From: a bacterium
GTDB lineage: Bacteria; Patescibacteriota; Patescibacteriia; Patescibacteriales; XYC2-FULL-47-12
Assembly (NCBI GenBank): GCA_030698385.1
Contig: JAUYLZ010000033.1
Span: 9,905 to 73,904, forward strand
Direction of reading: 5' to 3'
Length of the DNA stretch: 64,000 nucleotides
Part shown: positions 4,962 through 36,775 of the stretch, in pieces
Layout of the letters: each line of letters begins with the position of its first letter
Position numbering within the stretch: the first letter of the stretch is position 1
Notes under the pieces: model-generated
Database searches by the model: none
Seen by the model: only the letters and a program-made list of their open reading frames with translations
What the model was told of the DNA's origin: nothing
Translations under genes and position numbers: made by a program

Positions 4962-5054
4962 AATTTTGTTAAATTACAAGTTCCAAATAACAAATATCAA
5001 AAAAATTATAAATTTAAAATTTTAATATTTAGAACCTATAATAATATAAAATAA

Positions 5055-5190
5055 AAAAATCTCCGATAAAAACCGCAGATATTAGGATAATTAATTCTGA
5101 AATTTGCAATTTGCATTCAAAAATTAATACTTTTCCTCGACGAGATGTTTAACGCGAATTGCGCCTCGTTGTCTGCGGCTTGCCCCGTAA
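5055..5190 (-). promoter_or_regulatory. possible rplJ (L10) leader structure
   Basis: GC-enriched island inside an AT-rich ~400 bp 5' UTR. Outer inverted repeat ccgcaga/tctgcgg encloses inner hairpins (cgacgag...ctcgttg). Its position matches known L10 autoregulatory leaders. Confidence 0.25.
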
Positions 5191-5378
5191 AATTTAATTA
5201 TTTAGGGGATATTCAGTTATTATAGACATAATAGCATACCTTTAATTTTTGTCAAATGCATTTTTTTGTCAAAATACCACTGCTTACATATTTTATGTTA
5301 ATAACTATTTTTGGTGTAAAAATTTACTTTAATGTTAGCACCTTGACAAAAAAAATAAAAAAATGGCAAAGCAATTTT

Positions 5379-30016: not shown

Positions 30017-30134
30017 AACTTTTTTTTTAAAAAAATTATTATATTTTTATTATAACAAAATTAGCAAAAAAATAAAGGTGAAGCGCTATCACCTTTATTT
30101 GCTAATTTTTAAAAATAATTTTGCAACCATCTCA

Positions 30135-31052
30135 TTATACCTTTAAATATTTTCCAACAGCCAAAAGTGAGGCGACAATATTTATAATGGCCGCTATCAA
30201 AAATTGAATGCCAAAAATCTTAATGAAATTATCCTGAAAGTATCCAACCAATTGCAAGTTCCCTGCCTCGAAAAAAGCCCCCAAGTACGGCTGCAATAAA
30301 TGCACAAATGGATAAAATATTAGAATTATTCCCAAAACACCGCCAAACGCGTATAATATTGCCTCAGCTAAAAATGGCGCGCGAATGAACCAATTGCTCG
30401 CGCCCACCAGCTTCATAATTCGAATTTCTTTTTGATGCGTGTAAATGGCAATGCGAATAGCGTTAAAAACAACCAGAATTGTAATCGCGCCAAAAATAAT
30501 GCTGATCAAAATCGCAACCTGCTGAGCCTTGTAGGTAATATTTTGCATGCTGGTTAAAAGGCTTTTGTGATCGTCAAAATCTCGGCTCTCAATAATATTA
30601 TTTTTGCTCAAATTATCCAGCGAAGCAATCACTTTTTCATAATCAGGCAATTTTCGCGCGCTTACTACCAAGCTTGGATTAAGCGGATTGTTGCCCAGTT
30701 CTCGCAGTGATTCTATAATCTCAGAATCGTCTTTGTGCTTGAACTGAAAAGCCTCCAGCGCCTGCGCTTTGGAAATATATTCAACACCGGTAACCTCTGG
30801 CAAAAGCGTCAATTCATTTTTTAATACGCCGATGTCTTCTTCATTCGCATCCGTGGCTAGGTAAAGACTGAGATCGATTTTACTTTCTACCGATGCAATG
30901 GCGGCTTGTGAGACTACGCCGACGATGATTAAAAAGTTTATGGAAAAAAGCGACAAAATTAAAATAGTAATCGTGATCAGCGACAGCCAAAAGTTCCGGA
31001 AAAAATCCTGAAAGGCGAACTTTACTATTCTGATGAATGAGAGGATGACCAT
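30135..31052 (-). CDS. ftsX: cell division permease FtsX
   Basis: 305 aa. TM1, large extracytoplasmic loop, then 3 TM with the FtsX-like C-terminal pattern. Confidence 0.8.
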   Translation of the reverse strand: MVILSFIRIVKFAFQDFFRNFWLSLITITILILSLFSINFLIIVGVVSQAAIASVESKIDLSLYLATDANEEDIGVLKNELTLLPEVTGVEYISKAQALEAFQFKHKDDSEIIESLRELGNNPLNPSLVVSARKLPDYEKVIASLDNLSKNNIIESRDFDDHKSLLTSMQNITYKAQQVAILISIIFGAITILVVFNAIRIAIYTHQKEIRIMKLVGASNWFIRAPFLAEAILYAFGGVLGIILIFYPFVHLLQPYLGAFFEAGNLQLVGYFQDNFIKIFGIQFLIAAIINIVASLLAVGKYLKV

Positions 31053-31135
31053 GGGAAAATTTTTAATTTCTAATTGACCTAATTTCTAAAAAATTCTAAT
31101 GTCTCAATGTCTAATATTAATATCTTCTTTTTGTT

Positions 31136-32542
31136 TTAAATTTCTTTTATTGAACTTATTATTCTTTGATAAACATTAATTAGTTGACTTTGATCACTTT
31201 CAACTGCCGAAAATCTAAGCGTTAAAATAAATTTGTTGTTAGAAACTAGACCAACAGTCAGAATTTGAGTATTCAACATAGCCTCATTAACAAGACTTTC
31301 ATCGTCATAAAAAATTAATTTGTGTAACTTTATTCCGTCGTCACTCCTAACAACGCTTTTATCTTTAAATGGTAAAGCAAATTCGTAATCTAAATTTTCA
31401 TCTAAATTATCAAAATTAAAATTTTGCCAATTTTCTTGGACTAAAACCTCCATTAACACTCCTTTAACTAACTCACTAGCATTACTCACAAAATTCTCTG
31501 ACTTAATGTCTGCTATTTTTGAAAACTGATTAACCGAATTTAAAATCCATTCTTTCGGATACTGAAACTCAAATCCATACTCCCCATTCCGATAGGTTTG
31601 CCAATCACTTGTATCAATGTCAGCTGTGTCGTTACTGTCTATAAATTTGAAAGTTAAAATAATTTTATCAACTAAACCTCTATCTTCTCCAGCTTGTAAA
31701 TAGCTGGAATATCTAACGAGCTTGCCGTCTATGACCACGGCAATATCATCAGAATGAACTGCTGTGCATGTGTATTTAAAAAACTTTGCTGAATTATTAT
31801 TTATAACAACATCACTAACATTTTCAATACAACTTTCAATTTCACTTATATAATCGTCTGTGTTATTAAACTCTGGAATTACTTTTATACTTAGAGTTGG
31901 TGGAGGAACAAAATCCCCTATTAACTGTTTAGCTCTGTTAGGTGAATAATATGCCTCTTTTTGTTTTACCCAATCTTTTGGCATACTTACTTCAAATCCA
32001 TACTCCTCATTCCGATATGTTTCCCAGTCCTTCGTTGAAACTTCGGACTGCAAGCCCAAGTCATTAATTTCTGTGCCTAATAATTCAAAACTCTCGGCCA
32101 TAGCGTTGATGATGTCACGGTACTGGAACGCGCCGCGCAGAATGTATTGTAAATCGTCTTGCGTGCTAACTACTTTGAGATAACCGTCATAACGCAACTC
32201 CGCCGTAATGTCAACGGCCAAAAGCTCAACCGGATAATCTCTTCCCTTGTTCAAAGCTTCTTCACTCATGGTAAAGCCAAAAAAATACTTAACCGGCGTC
32301 TGCTCGGCGCTCACATCGCGCTGCCACCACCATCCTTGCGGCAACTTCATACTGAAGCCCTCGCTCTCGCGCGCGAGCGTCTGCCATTTGGCTAAATCAC
32401 CAACGGGGACTTGGGCAACTTGCTCGTTCTGTGCGGCAATTCCCCTGTCTTTAGCGACTGGAATTTCCCCCGCCTTCAAACAACCGGATAAAATAAACGC
32501 GGCGGCAAGGATTAAAATGGATGTTTTAAAAAATTGAGACAT
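31136..32542 (-). CDS. lipoprotein of unknown function (paralog of 32562..33506, carries extra repeat modules)
   Basis: 468 aa. Lipobox LSGC. Shares ~120 aa N-terminal domain with its neighbour (PVGDLAKWQTL-RESE, YPVELL, YDGYL, QYRDIINAM). Internal repeats DWQTYRNGEYGFEFQYPKEW / DWETYRNEEYGFEVSMPKDW. Confidence 0.6.
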   Translation of the reverse strand: MSQFFKTSILILAAAFILSGCLKAGEIPVAKDRGIAAQNEQVAQVPVGDLAKWQTLARESEGFSMKLPQGWWWQRDVSAEQTPVKYFFGFTMSEEALNKGRDYPVELLAVDITAELRYDGYLKVVSTQDDLQYILRGAFQYRDIINAMAESFELLGTEINDLGLQSEVSTKDWETYRNEEYGFEVSMPKDWVKQKEAYYSPNRAKQLIGDFVPPPTLSIKVIPEFNNTDDYISEIESCIENVSDVVINNNSAKFFKYTCTAVHSDDIAVVIDGKLVRYSSYLQAGEDRGLVDKIILTFKFIDSNDTADIDTSDWQTYRNGEYGFEFQYPKEWILNSVNQFSKIADIKSENFVSNASELVKGVLMEVLVQENWQNFNFDNLDENLDYEFALPFKDKSVVRSDDGIKLHKLIFYDDESLVNEAMLNTQILTVGLVSNNKFILTLRFSAVESDQSQLINVYQRIISSIKEI

Positions 32543-32561
32543 TGGAATTTTTGATTAATTG

Positions 32562-33506
32562 TTAATTTTCTATGAACTTAAAACTTGAGGCAATGCCGTC
32601 TTGAAAATAAGTGTCCGTCCAGTTGTCTATGACAATTGAAATTAAATTGCCGCCGTCTATTACCTGCAACCAATACCAGTCGCCATAATTCACTGTTGTC
32701 AACAGCGCTTTTTTACCGCCAAGAGTAATTTCTCTTTTGGCAATACGGTCGGCGGCCAAACCGCCTTCATTATTTGGACCGCGGCCGCGCTTGTCATAGT
32801 TGTACAAAATTTCGGCCACATCCGTTGATTGGGTTGTCTCAATTTTCAAAAAATCCGGCGACACGAAACATGATATTTCGCCGCAGAACTCCAGATAAAA
32901 AACAGCGCCATCTTTTTTGTCTTCATAAATTTTTACCTGAGACGGGTATTTGAATTCAAAGCCATACTGATCATTCCGGTAAACCGGCCAACTTGTTATA
33001 TCCACGTTTTCATCAAGAAATTTAAAACTATCAATCATGGCGTTAATGATATCGCGATACTGGCGGCCGCCGCGCAAGACATACCGCGCGTCATCTCTGA
33101 TCATAAATGTTCGCAGATAGCCATCATAGCCCCATTCAGATCCGTCAGTGGTTATTAAAAATTCAACCGGATAATTCGCGCCTTTTCCCAAAGTCTCCTG
33201 GCTGGGCGCCAGTCCGAGAAAAAATGAAGTTTCCGGCGTTTCACCATCCCAGTCTCTTTGCCAGTACCAGCTTTGCGGATACTTAATGACAAAATTTTCA
33301 CTTTCTCGCTTCAGCGTCTGCCACTTGGCCAAATCACCAATGGGTACTTGCTCTGTATCTTTTTGTTTCGGCGTTATAAAACTCTCACCGGTATTAACTT
33401 TTTTCTGGCAACCGGATAATAATACTATTATTACCAAAATTAAAAAAATTATTCCTAGTTTCCTAGCCATTAATTTTTTGTAAAAAATCTGAAAATTAAA
33501 AATCAT
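32562..33506 (-). CDS. lipoprotein of unknown function (paralog of 31136..32542)
   Basis: 314 aa. Lipobox LSGC. Same conserved domain plus one WPVYRNDQYGFEFKYP module. Confidence 0.6.
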   Translation of the reverse strand: MIFNFQIFYKKLMARKLGIIFLILVIIVLLSGCQKKVNTGESFITPKQKDTEQVPIGDLAKWQTLKRESENFVIKYPQSWYWQRDWDGETPETSFFLGLAPSQETLGKGANYPVEFLITTDGSEWGYDGYLRTFMIRDDARYVLRGGRQYRDIINAMIDSFKFLDENVDITSWPVYRNDQYGFEFKYPSQVKIYEDKKDGAVFYLEFCGEISCFVSPDFLKIETTQSTDVAEILYNYDKRGRGPNNEGGLAADRIAKREITLGGKKALLTTVNYGDWYWLQVIDGGNLISIVIDNWTDTYFQDGIASSFKFIEN

Positions 33507-33516
33507 AAACCTAAAA

Positions 33517-34203
33517 TTAAAGCAGATACTTCCCTTTCTTCTGATCAGAAATCACCCGCCCGCCGTCAATGGTAATGACGCGGCGGCGCAGGCTATTCAC
33601 GACTTCTTTGTTGTGCGTAACCAAAATTATCGTGGTTCCCAATCGATTAATTCGCTCCAGCAGTGAAATAATATCAGCGGCATTAATTGAATCCAAATTT
33701 CCGGTCGGTTCATCAGCGAGCAGAATTTTTGGCCGGTGCACGAGCGAGCGCGCGATGACTACGCGCTGTTGCTCGCCGCCGGAAACTTCAGACGGGTAAC
33801 GGTGCATCTTGTGTTCCAATCCGACCAGTTTGAAAACCTGCGGTACAATCGCTTTTATCTGCGATGGCACATGTCCGCAAACCTGCATGGCGAAAGAAAC
33901 ATTTTCAAACAAGGTTTTCTTCGGCAACAGTTTAAAATCCTGAAAAACAACGCCGATCTGGCGCCGCAAATAAGGTATTTCGCGCTGTTTAATATGCGTT
34001 ATGTCCCAGTCGCCGAGAATTATCTTTCCTTGGCTGATGCGCTCCTCTCCGATCAGAGCTTTCACCATAGTGGTCTTGCCGGTGCCTGACTGTCCGACAA
34101 TAGAAACAAACTCTCCCGGTCCAATAAACAGACTGAGATTATTCAGCGCCTTGATGTTCGGCGGATATATTTTTGTTACATTTTCAAAAGTAATCATGTT
34201 CAA
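33517..34203 (-). CDS. ftsE: cell division ATP-binding protein FtsE
   Basis: 228 aa. Walker A GQSGTGKTT, ABC signature SGGEQQRVVIARSL, Walker B ILLADEPTGNLD. Confidence 0.9.
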   Translation of the reverse strand: MNMITFENVTKIYPPNIKALNNLSLFIGPGEFVSIVGQSGTGKTTMVKALIGEERISQGKIILGDWDITHIKQREIPYLRRQIGVVFQDFKLLPKKTLFENVSFAMQVCGHVPSQIKAIVPQVFKLVGLEHKMHRYPSEVSGGEQQRVVIARSLVHRPKILLADEPTGNLDSINAADIISLLERINRLGTTIILVTHNKEVVNSLRRRVITIDGGRVISDQKKGKYLL

Positions 34204-34282
34204 GAGATTTTGTACGGATTTAATTATGTTTGCGAACCATTAATACGAATCGTTTTAAGTATCTAAATGTTCGTGCAGCTAT

Positions 34283-34325
34283 GCGCCTGCCTGCCGCCTG
34301 CCTGCCGGTAGGCAGGGCAGGCAGG
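34283..34325. repeat. GC-rich palindrome (cctgcctgcc tandem plus inverted copy)
   Basis: gcctgcctgccgcctgcctgccggtaggcagggcaggcagg forms a ~15-bp G+C hairpin, anomalous against the AT-rich background. No T-tract follows on either strand. Confidence 0.5.
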
Positions 34326-34459
34326 AATGCCGCGAATGCACTTAACGTTAATTTATACATTTTCAAACATTTCTTTAAAATTTACTAATTATAAAAAATT
34401 TATCATTGTATATAGCGCTAGAAGTGTATTCCAAAGCAAGAAGCCAGCAACCGGAATCA

Positions 34460-34771
34460 TTAAAATAATGGCCTTGATACGAAATCGAATATATAGTAAA
34501 TGGTCGCAGAATAAATTAAAAAAATTACTATTGTTAACATGGCCTTATTTCTAGTTGGAATATTTTTATTCAAGACGGTGGTAATAGATAAAGATGCTAT
34601 TAATGGAACAACTATAAAAACCACAAAGAATATTGATAATGCTTCAAAGTCCTTAAATGAATTTAACTCTGAAATTTCTCTACCATTTTTTAAAATAGTA
34701 AGAATTGATATTATAATAGTAAAGACAAAAATAGTTAGAAAAACAAATAATAATCTTTTTAATTTATTCAT
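34460..34771 (-). CDS. hypothetical membrane protein
   Basis: ORF track gives 34460..34867. Start moved to the internal Met (MNKLKRLL...) to avoid a 70-bp overlap with the upstream dacA-like gene. 3 TM. Confidence 0.4.
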   Translation of the reverse strand: MNKLKRLLFVFLTIFVFTIIISILTILKNGREISELNSFKDFEALSIFFVVFIVVPLIASLSITTVLNKNIPTRNKAMLTIVIFLIYSATIYYIFDFVSRPLF

Positions 34772-34796
34772 AATTAAACGCTTAAATTTTGCATAA

Positions 34797-36371
34797 CTAC
34801 CGACGCATTGCGTAACGCAATAAATCGGCAACTTCATTAAAGCTCTGATCTCTGGTTCGCGCGCCAAATAGCACGGCTACTAAATTTCTGTCTGCAAATT
34901 TTGCCTTGGTCATCAGGCAATAGCCGGCTTCGTCCAAATAGCCGGTTTTGCCGCCGGTTATATAAAAATCATCAGCTAGCAATCTGTTTGTATTTCGGAT
35001 GTTAAATTTCTTTTTCTCTTTAATTGTTTCAAAGGCGTATTCTTTCAGTGTCGTCACCTCAAGCAGTCTAATATCTTTAAGAACCTCTTTGCTTATTATA
35101 ACATAATTTGACACTGTTGACACATTTTGTGGAGCTAAACCGGTTGGTTCAATAAAGACGGTGCTGGTCGCTCCCCAGGAATGGACTTTTTCATTCATTT
35201 TGTTGATAAAATCACCACGCTCTAGCCCGCTAACTCTGACCAATGTCTCAACCGTATTATTTGTTGAGGCCATTAAAGAGGTGTAGAAAAGATCTTTTAT
35301 CTTTAGTTCATCATTATCAGCGATGCGTAAACGCGCCGCTTCATACTTATCCACATGAGCATGAGTTATTTCTTCGTCAATATTTTTGTAAGCCACTATT
35401 TTTTCAAAATCCGGATTAGTGTCTAAAAAAACACTCGCTGATATCAGCTTGGTCAAACTGGCCAAAGGCAATGCTTGGTCAATATTTTTTTCGTAAATTA
35501 TCTCATCAGTATCTACATCTTTTACAACGGCCGCTACCGATGCCACCTCCGGTAATAAGCCGATTTGATCTATTTTTATACCCATTATTCGTCCGGAGTC
35601 TTGCGTTATTTGCAAAGGCTCTATTGAAACATTGATAATGCCGGCGCCAAGCGGAGCTAGTTTTTCAAAAGCGACTTTGTCCAGGTCTATTACTCTGCCG
35701 GGATGCAACGCGCGATCCGGCCCGTAGTCATTGACTTCCACATCGACAAATTTTGAATTGTCATAATTCCAAACGCGCAAGATAGATCCCTTGGGAAAAT
35801 CAGGCGAAGCGGCAAAATTACCGCTTTTATAACCATACCAACTGGCATTGCCGCTGCCCATAATCTCGGGGTTGGAAAAAACAGCGATGCGCGCAAAGGG
35901 CAGATGGATGTAAGCTCGAACCATGTTCTCACCGACATAATCGCGGGTCGGCAATGGCCGCCAGGCGTTAAAACCTTTGTCAAAAAAATACACTTGTTTC
36001 ATGTCTGTGCTGGCGCCACCATACTTCATCTGAATAATAAAAGGTATGTTATTGTCGTAGGCTGATTTGTTGCGAAATTCAAACTGATAAATTTCACTGA
36101 CTCTATCCATTGACCATGGCTCGTCAATTGGTTCATGCAACTCTGCGACATCAACGCCGGTTGCCTCGTTGAGAATCCCCGGAGTTAGTGAAAGTTTTAG
36201 CGCGCCATCAAAAGCGTTTACCGTATAACCTTTGGAAATTGTCGGCTCATCCAAATTAATAAAAAAAGACTTATTTTGCGCGACTGCTTCGGTTTGCGCG
36301 TTTACGGCGTTAAAAGTAAAAAAAATAAGACCTGAGATTATTAATACTTGCCAGAATTGATTTTTTTTCAT
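34797..36371 (-). CDS. secreted D-alanyl-D-alanine carboxypeptidase (peptidase S11, PBP5-like) fused to an N-terminal RlpA-like DPBB domain
   Basis: 524 aa. Signal peptide. DPBB-like block GNASWYGYKSGNFAASPDFPKGSILRVWNYDNSKFVDVEVNDYGPD. S11 motifs SLTK (SxxK), STN (SxN), KTG. Confidence 0.75.
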   Translation of the reverse strand: MKKNQFWQVLIISGLIFFTFNAVNAQTEAVAQNKSFFINLDEPTISKGYTVNAFDGALKLSLTPGILNEATGVDVAELHEPIDEPWSMDRVSEIYQFEFRNKSAYDNNIPFIIQMKYGGASTDMKQVYFFDKGFNAWRPLPTRDYVGENMVRAYIHLPFARIAVFSNPEIMGSGNASWYGYKSGNFAASPDFPKGSILRVWNYDNSKFVDVEVNDYGPDRALHPGRVIDLDKVAFEKLAPLGAGIINVSIEPLQITQDSGRIMGIKIDQIGLLPEVASVAAVVKDVDTDEIIYEKNIDQALPLASLTKLISASVFLDTNPDFEKIVAYKNIDEEITHAHVDKYEAARLRIADNDELKIKDLFYTSLMASTNNTVETLVRVSGLERGDFINKMNEKVHSWGATSTVFIEPTGLAPQNVSTVSNYVIISKEVLKDIRLLEVTTLKEYAFETIKEKKKFNIRNTNRLLADDFYITGGKTGYLDEAGYCLMTKAKFADRNLVAVLFGARTRDQSFNEVADLLRYAMRR

Positions 36372-36497: not shown

Positions 36498-36568
36498 GCG
36501 AGATTAGTACAGTGGTAGTATATCGGCTTCCCAAGCCGAGGACGCCAGTTCGATCCTGGTATCTCGCT
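36498..36568 (+). tRNA. tRNA-Gly (anticodon CCC)
   Basis: Hand-folded cloverleaf: acceptor GCGAGAT/ATCTCGC, D-arm GTAC-AGTGGTA-GTAT, anticodon arm TCGGC-TTCCCAA-GCCGA, T-arm GCCAG-TTCGATC-CTGGT, discriminator T. No encoded CCA. Confidence 0.75.
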
Positions 36569-36699
36569 CAGTCCGGCGATGGCGGGCAGGCAAGGTTGAG
36601 GCACGAGTCCGATTCCCGTTACCCGCTCTGGTAATTTCAGATTTCAAATTTCAGAATGAAAAATATGTTATTTTGAAATTTGAAATTTACGTTTAAAAC

Positions 36700-36775
36700 G
36701 CCGAAATAGCTCAGCTGGTAGAGCAATGCTTTCGTAAAGCAGAGGTCGGGAGTTCGAATCTCCCTTTCGGCTCCA
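36700..36775 (+). tRNA. tRNA-Thr (anticodon CGU)
   Basis: Acceptor GCCGAAA/TTTCGGC, D-arm GCTC-AGCTGGTA-GAGC, anticodon loop TTCGTAA, T-arm GGGAG-TTCGAAT-CTCCC, CCA encoded. Confidence 0.85.

Follow-up and report, generated by a model that had tools for sequence, protein, structure and literature searches.

A probable strain-variable cassette of PsbP-fold lipoproteins in the ftsE-ftsX spacer of a Patescibacterium

Introduction

Why would the two genes of a conserved cell-division system be kept apart by genes for lipoproteins? The question is raised by a stretch of 64,000 nucleotides (nt) of contig JAUYLZ010000033.1 (assembly GCA_030698385.1) from an ultrasmall, Falkowbacteria-like bacterium of the Patescibacteriota. 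In this stretch, which is called the window throughout, ftsE and ftsX are separated by two genes, named lipA and lipB here, whose products carry lipoboxes. FtsEX is known to signal to partners with coiled-coil domains that bind FtsX, and these partners are either hydrolases themselves or regulators linking a hydrolase, such as EnvC-AmiB (PMC11627006, a 2024 review). A preliminary description of the window put LipA and LipB forward as new FtsEX-coupled partners. Based on the analyses reported here, we instead favor the view that lipA and lipB are probably a strain-variable cassette of PsbP-fold surface lipoproteins, located in the ftsE-ftsX spacer and co-transcribed with ftsEX.

According to this model, the tandem paralogues would be anchored on the outer face of the cytoplasmic membrane, each with a compact N-terminal module (N-module) and, behind it, longer modules of the W-x-T-Y-R-N...ILSTFKFI type, of which LipA has one and LipB two. 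The cassette would be lineage-restricted, to a subgroup of Falkowbacteria-like Patescibacteria, would ride on the ftsEX transcript and would change its module content by recombination at conserved module junctions. Its products would be exposed binding proteins under diversifying selection, with a role in the envelope, in ligand binding or in host contact, and not regulators of wall hydrolysis.

Results

The open reading frame (ORF) list gives the order ftsE, lipA, lipB and ftsX, head to tail on the minus strand, and all four ORFs of the preliminary description were confirmed at their coordinates. The ftsE gene (33517-34203, minus strand) encodes 228 amino acids (aa) from a TTG at 34203 or 226 aa from an ATG at 34197, which is the start called in L081. 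The lipA gene (32562-33506, minus strand) encodes 314 aa from its first ATG; its likely start is at 33470, which is also the NCBI call and gives a protein of 302 aa with MARKLG... as first residues (P0001). The lipB gene (31136-32542, minus strand) encodes 468 aa, and ftsX (30135-31052, minus strand) encodes a permease-like division protein of 305 aa. Gaps between the genes are short, at 10 nt for ftsE-lipA, or 46 nt if lipA begins at the NCBI call, 19 nt for lipA-lipB and 83 nt for lipB-ftsX.

When the coding strand was scanned from ftsE to ftsX, no terminator-like sites were found, and the 83-nt spacer between lipB and ftsX has no stable fold (-4.5 kcal/mol, z +0.9). An intrinsic-terminator-like hairpin with a U-run is present 3' of ftsX (30070-30100, minus strand; -22.5 kcal/mol, z -3.9) and is likely the end of the transcription unit. 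On the other side, 5' of ftsE, lies the GC-rich palindrome CCTGCCTGCCCTGCCTACCGGCAGGCAGGCGGCAGGCAGG (34286-34325, minus strand), and the region 34270-34345 folds at -39.9 kcal/mol (z -3.2). Because there is no internal terminator, the lipB-ftsX spacer lacks a stable fold, and hairpins are found 3' of ftsX and 5' of ftsE, the four genes are very probably carried on one transcript. The palindrome sits between a small membrane ORF (described below) and ftsE, and no U-run follows it.

The flanking genes have their best matches in the two components of FtsEX. FtsE matches ABC_tran in Pfam (8.9e-34), and in NCBIfam the FtsE equivalog TIGR02673 ranks first with 261.0 bits, slightly below its cut-off of 264.85 and ahead of the next family at 182 bits. 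Its orthology is supported by the conserved synteny with ftsX in relatives, and it is 86% identical to the FtsE of syntenic Falkowbacteria-like contigs. FtsX is a member of its family, which is defined by a four-TM permease domain with the extracellular domain between TM1 and TM2, by virtue of an FtsX-type extracellular domain (PF18075, FtsX_ECD; 2.2e-13, 51.1 bits) combined with the permease domain (PF02687; 3.3e-10, 40.5 bits), both above cut-off. Its best NCBIfam matches are FtsX models as well, at 170 and 162 bits, short of the curated cut-offs of 255 and 225. A total of 836 FtsX homologues were found at E<=1e-40, and the nearest carry the name Candidatus Falkowbacteria or Patescibacteria.

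LolCDE and MacB fall into one ATP-binding cassette (ABC) class with the FtsX-type permeases, and the genes between the two subunits of the window's system encode lipoproteins. The ABC system might thus be a MacB/Lol-like type VII machine with the lipoproteins as its substrates, and not the divisome's FtsEX, but we regard this as very improbable. FtsE and FtsX score best among the families, the FtsX-specific extracellular domain is present and MacB_PCD is not, synteny with DivIC and wall enzymes is conserved, and most orthologous operons contain no lipoprotein gene. A Lol-like or MacB-like identity was rejected on the domain evidence.

The two inserted genes encode related proteins. As the preliminary description had noted, LipA and LipB share a conserved domain of ~120 aa (44% identity over the first ~185 residues; BLASTP, 1e-49), and the W-x-Y-R-N-x-x-Y-G-F-E modules it had pointed out occur in three copies in the window, all of them within lipA and lipB. 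Both proteins have a lipobox of the bacterial-lipoprotein form [LVI][ASTVI][GAS]C and are predicted to be lipidated. The lipobox is LLSGC (...IIVLLSGC) in LipA, with a canonical signal peptide if translation starts at 33470 (MARKLGIIFLILVIIVLLSGC), and ILSGC (...AFILSGC) in LipB. Homologues found in the databases have ITAGC (P0003 and P0004) or IAGC (P0242) at this position.

LipA consists of two and LipB of three PsbP-like (PF18933) alpha/beta modules in a chain. With the gathering cut-off of PsbP_2 (PF18933) at 27 bits, both proteins pass, LipB with 54.4 bits (2.1e-14) and LipA marginally with 27.5 bits. The N-module of LipA (33006-33350, minus strand; P0001 residues 41-155, ~115 aa) is 54% identical to that of LipB (32069-32413, minus strand; residues 44-158). 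In LipA it is followed by a C-terminal PsbP_2-like module (32565-32990, minus strand) that starts with WPVYRNDQYGFEFKYP, was recognized by its motif, and is modelled at predicted local distance difference test (pLDDT) values of 50-84; its phmmer matches are modules of Patescibacteria proteins. In LipB, modules 2 and 3 (31139-32026, minus strand) start with WETYRNEEYGFEV and WQTYRNGEYGFEF.

Structure prediction of the shared domain yielded a confident PsbP-like alpha/beta sandwich. In the AlphaFold2 model of LipA, built from a 65-sequence alignment, the mean pLDDT is 76.7 and the N-module reaches 87-97; the longest helix, the signal peptide excepted, has no more than 13 residues. In the LipB model, modules 2 and 3 are found at pLDDT 70-94 with short helices only, and the N-module is poorly modelled in that alignment. 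A 28-residue helix of LipB (128-155) falls at pLDDT <50 and is unreliable; the homologous region of LipA is its alpha/beta N-module, which is modelled well. A Foldseek search of LipA against the PDB placed PsbP-family chains in all of the top six positions (probability 0.98-1.0), and the top matches include CyanoP (2lnj and 2xb3), PsbP of photosystem II and PsbP-like subunits of the NADH dehydrogenase-like-photosystem I complex (NDH-PSI). Template modelling (TM) scores were 0.39-0.52 when normalized to the target, a modest match obtained with a two-domain query. The models thus predict that LipA has the PsbP-like alpha/beta-sandwich fold. At the sequence level, the N-module matched none of the PDB chains (best E 0.8, an antibody chain). 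Since its profile aligns end to end with that of the generic W-x-T-Y-R-N...ILSTFKFI module of Patescibacteria proteins (hhalign 98.3%, E 2e-14), the shared domain of ~120 aa must be counted as a compact subtype of that module. LipA and LipB represent a new compact subtype inside a known fold family.

These observations bear on the proposal that LipA and LipB are new partners of FtsEX. In such a mechanism, the N-module would dock on the FtsX extracellular domain, ATP-driven movements would act on the lipoproteins, and the C-terminal modules (C-modules) would recruit or regulate a wall component. The position of the genes inside an operon that lacks an internal terminator is in favor of this idea, as is the location of LipA and LipB in the same compartment as the FtsX extracellular domain. 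However, the partners known so far are coiled-coil proteins (PMC11627006), and no coiled coil is seen in the confident regions of either model. Likewise, no LytM/M23, CHAP or NlpC/P60 domains, and no other hydrolase domain, were found in LipA or LipB; Pfam reports PsbP_2/PsbP only and NCBIfam nothing relevant. Together with the comparison of relatives given below, this leads us to consider a partnership with FtsEX unlikely.

The lipB gene is a compositional mosaic. Its GC content drops at the first W-E-T-Y-R-N junction, from 45-56% in the N-module to about 30% in modules 2 and 3, and that of the window is about 39%. Further, a 28-nt inverted repeat brackets lipB exactly. One arm (31081-31108) lies in the lipB-ftsX spacer and the other (32533-32560) takes in the spacer between lipA and lipB together with the start codon of lipB, and 24 of the 28 positions are complementary. 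The window has just two copies of the 17-mer core of this repeat, one on each strand, and two matches were reached in 0 of 100 shuffles. The inverted repeat could be a recombination footprint or could form the ends of an invertible segment; it is the only sign of a mobile element beside the insert, where neither a transposase nor an integrase gene was seen. A related word, TCTAATGTCT, is repeated 5' of the P0003 and P0004 genes and is also present in the S11-ftsE spacer of three other loci (L086-L088).

The low GC content of modules 2 and 3 and the repeat around lipB would also be explained if lipA and lipB were recently acquired passengers with no role tied to the locus, which landed in a recombination-prone, AT-rich spacer and are heading to loss. 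We hold this to be rather doubtful, as the ORFs are intact and have canonical lipoboxes, the N-module folds confidently, and the tandem duplicate has been retained.

An exhaustive profile search with the N-module recovered 71 relatives among 1.84 billion representatives, and most of these are small lipoproteins of 150-220 aa. In P0243, P0244, P0251, P0257, P0268, P0274 and P0280, a prepilin-like N-terminus (e.g. QQNGFSLIGILVVVVIIAALAYGS) takes the place of the lipobox, and P0243 matches N_methyl with 22.8 bits, above cut-off. Judged by their N-termini, this suggests that these relatives may be displayed on pilus-like fibres. In P0006, an N-type module lies inside a multi-module protein. Because the family combines small lipoproteins, prepilin-type N-termini and the internal module of P0006, it fits the description of a general extracytoplasmic display domain. 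An N-module at about 49% identity is shared by just two database proteins, P0003 and P0004, and P0242 is the next closest (E 5e-38). A word-index search had returned only LipA and its paralogue, which would have made LipA an orphan; this was overturned by the exhaustive profile search and by the search with LipB.

The junction was then compared among relatives, using 80 loci of species-representative genomes, 41 metagenome loci and additional look-up contigs; the 139 loci fetched in all are almost exclusively ftsEX neighbourhoods. The statement that ftsE and ftsX are normally neighbours held: ftsX lies directly 3' of ftsE in essentially all of the ~120 comparison loci in which both genes were seen, and the window carries an insertion of ~2.4 kb at this otherwise conserved junction. 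Among the 80 species-representative loci, ftsX follows ftsE directly wherever both were found, and no LipA/LipB homologues are present within 10 kb. In the metagenome loci and look-up contigs, the ftsE-ftsX gap is 0-625 nt. No further copies of the N-module (by hidden Markov model) or of the module motif (by the regular expression W-x-x-Y-x-N) were detected in the 139 loci.

Several of the loci without an insert are close relatives of those that have one. L086 and L089, with 86% identity in FtsE and 69% in FtsX, have ~110 nt between ftsE and ftsX, and the order that they have in common with the window is RecJ, RNase H, DivIC, peptidyl-prolyl isomerase (PPIase), DPBB/S11, ftsE, ftsX, PfkB, ..., GT2, DUF2304, GT2, VanZ and T2SSE. 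In L095, ftsE and ftsX overlap (ATGA) with no insert, and the C-terminus of its FtsE is 98.8% identical at the protein level and 85% at the DNA level to that of L139, which does bear an insert. The two genes are also adjacent in L136, which is close to the insert-bearing L085, and in L138, which is close to the window. Since ftsE and ftsX are adjacent or overlapping in such close relatives, FtsEX does not appear to need LipA or LipB, and we predict that the lipoproteins act independently of the FtsEX mechanism.

Other genes have been found at the same position. A gene for a 23S_rRNA_IVP four-helix-bundle protein occupies the ftsE-ftsX spacer of L114 (2728-3117), L121 (7577-7957) and L131 (546-917), and a 200-aa membrane protein is encoded in that of L128 (448-1050). 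The junction repeatedly accepts foreign genes. In L086 (6893-7000), L089 (6891-7000), L139 (256-357) and L092 (154-290), the spacers are AT-rich and made up of short words in direct and inverted repeats, such as CCGAATG/CATTCGG and GCTAATCCGCAAATTGCGAAT...ATTCGCAGATTAGC; these spacers around ftsE and ftsX may be structured or recombination-prone elements.

The patchy presence of lipA and lipB and the other passenger genes at the junction are compatible with the passenger explanation. They also weigh against a partnership with FtsEX, as the lipoprotein genes are missing from close relatives, L095 included, and unrelated genes are found at the junction in other relatives. A further point against a partnership is that the divergence of the FtsX extracellular domain in insert-bearing lineages does not exceed that in insert-free lineages, with 61-70% identity in all.

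A scan of FtsE in GTDB species genomes alone, where no match exceeds 68% identity and none of the loci has an insert, would suggest that the gene order of the window is unique. This is contradicted by two loci. In L139, the P0242 gene lies 102 nt after the 3' end of ftsE. In L083, the P0004 stop codon is followed after 63 nt by an ORF that agrees with the window's FtsX over its N-terminal 48 residues (41/48). The preliminary description had named a gene order found in this genome alone among the signs that would speak against its proposal. The insertion is not confined to this genome, as the family recurs at the junction in L139 and L083, but most relatives lack it.

Further variation is seen immediately 5' of ftsX in other insert-bearing loci. 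In L085, a repeat protein and a membrane-anchored protein of 480 aa, with the module motif at its beginning, are encoded directly 5' of ftsX. The repeat protein (L085 1-927, two genes 5' of ftsX) contains two copies of a ~75-aa repeat (...GRILLQIEEHGEAWYVDP...KFYM...AFEIMKAFGLGIKNDDIDKIPIG...) and has no Pfam match. L092 and L137 share 93% identity in FtsX, yet the genes upstream of ftsX end differently, with ...VFNKFIQSFMIF in L092 and ...VKYIFEIANNQ in L137; both encode secreted proteins.

The P0003 and P0004 genes (L082 93-1205; L083 26-1018; L084 96-1088) lie on short contigs from independent samples. Between L082 (P0003) and L083/L084 (P0004), ~520 nt of DNA are identical, comprising the 5' spacer and most of the N-module. 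The C-modules of P0003 and P0004 cannot be aligned, and near-identity returns over the final ~35 nt of the gene and in the spacer 3' of it. Since the ftsX start follows both, P0003 and P0004 are alleles with different C-modules and not tandem paralogues. This pattern in the DNA indicates a cassette-like replacement of modules at one locus across samples. In the comparison of lipB with the P0003 gene, tracts of 90-98% identity (nt 139-199 and 379-520) flank a core of 25-35% identity. Recent gene exchange between the two was considered and set aside, since these tracts are only moderately above the background of the ftsX 5' end, which is 85% identical between the P0003 population and the window; we claim hypervariable cores instead. 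The hypervariability of the inserted genes is a further argument against a role as FtsEX partners and is consistent with diversifying selection on exposed proteins.

The neighbourhood upstream of ftsE contains another secreted protein, with RlpA-like DPBB and Peptidase_S11 domains in Pfam (34797-36371, minus strand). Of the 51 related loci L085-L135, about 40 have a homologue 5' of ftsE, as do L001, L002 and L067, and it is this gene that is conserved beside ftsEX in the lineage (loci cited: L001, L002, L067, L086-L091 and L095-L135). The DPBB/S11 protein is a better candidate than LipA or LipB for an FtsEX-linked wall enzyme in this lineage. In relatives at a greater distance, the match is limited to the N-terminal/DPBB part. 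The 593-nt gap between the S11 gene and ftsE is filled by a small ORF for a multi-transmembrane protein (34460-34867, minus strand; 20-31% GC, probable start M33 at 34771) without a Pfam match. The same gap is ~140-156 nt in the syntenic L086 and L089, and the small ORF is a second lineage-specific insertion beside the operon. Genes for tRNA-Gly(CCC) (36498-36569, plus strand) and tRNA-Thr(CGT) (36700-36775, plus strand) lie between the minus-strand PPIase and DPBB/S11 genes, and a ribosomal L10 leader is present at 5044-5196 (minus strand).

Discussion

Our results describe lipA and lipB as genes for PsbP-fold lipoproteins that sit in the ftsEX operon of some Patescibacteria and are absent from their close relatives. 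We predict that they constitute a surface cassette whose modules vary among strains and bind ligands outside the cell. Some observations count against this model. The five closest N-module lipoproteins with visible context are all located at the ftsE-ftsX junction, in the window and in two other populations, and the ftsE of L139 is largely saturated at synonymous sites relative to the window (third-position identity 44%). Persistence at the junction could result from selection for linkage. In addition, a conserved N-module combined with variable C-modules is what one would expect if the N-module docks on a constant partner, e.g. the FtsX extracellular domain. The persistence of the family across lineages with such diverged ftsE genes speaks against a passenger on its way to loss as well.

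The partnership put forward in the preliminary description rests on two points, namely that at least three populations (the window, L139 and L083) have the N-module family at this junction and that a conserved N-module stands next to variable C-modules. That idea retains the shared junction, the probable co-transcription and the common side of the membrane, and it loses ground through the insert-free close relatives, the hypervariability and the lack of a coiled coil or hydrolase domain. A precedent for non-canonical co-factors of FtsEX is provided by SweC and SweD of Bacillus subtilis (PMC6705773), and because such co-factors exist, the probability of the partner model is lowered and not reduced to nothing. 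One specific form of it can be formulated. A clade-specific, lipid-anchored family with the PsbP fold might dock via its N-module on the FtsX extracellular domain, with FtsEX driving it or being modulated by it, and the exchangeable C-modules might serve as strain-specific outputs or targets. We think that this is improbable. A search of the literature returned nothing linking FtsX with PsbP-like proteins, and the work on FtsEX in Patescibacteria that it returned does not concern this arrangement.

Even if the genes are passengers only, the locus is a modest but clean example of the core division operon of a reduced-genome bacterium that hosts a fast-changing surface cassette, with whole modules swapped between strains. 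Such an example helps to understand how the surface varies among Patescibacteria that are uncultured and may be attached to hosts. Binding of the N-module to FtsX, if true, would extend the partner range of FtsEX beyond coiled-coil hydrolase activators, and bacteria of the Candidate Phyla Radiation would then have FtsEX partners of a new class.

Like EnvC, PcsB, CwlO and RipC, LipA and LipB are extracytoplasmic and encoded with or near ftsEX, and one can conceive of a role in which they are coupled to the extracellular domain of FtsX. Unlike these proteins, they possess neither a coiled coil nor a hydrolase domain, and they are missing in close relatives. SweC and SweD, which are co-factors of FtsEX-CwlO in B. 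subtilis (PMC6705773), set a precedent for accessory proteins of FtsEX besides the hydrolase; the analogy to LipA and LipB would be functional only, as no sequence or domain relationship between them was found.

The closest structural resemblance is to PsbP, CyanoP and PsbP-like proteins (PF01789; bacterial PsbP_2, PF18933), with which LipA appears from the Foldseek matches to share the alpha/beta-sandwich fold. CyanoP is a lipoprotein too. In contrast to these proteins, LipA and LipB come from a non-photosynthetic organism, and each has two or three modules in tandem. Their N-module is a compact subtype of ~115 aa that Pfam picks up by its first strand only, and sequence identity to the PsbP structures solved so far is 12-17%. 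Secreted, PsbP-related proteins of Patescibacteria with several modules (e.g. P0005-P0007, P0023 and P0031) have the same W-x-T-Y-R-N-E-E-Y-G-F-E-x-K-Y-P ... ILSTFKFI junctions and the same design of an anchor plus a chain of modules. The close N-module subgroup formed by LipA, LipB, P0003, P0004 and P0242 is the only set seen at the ftsE-ftsX junction.

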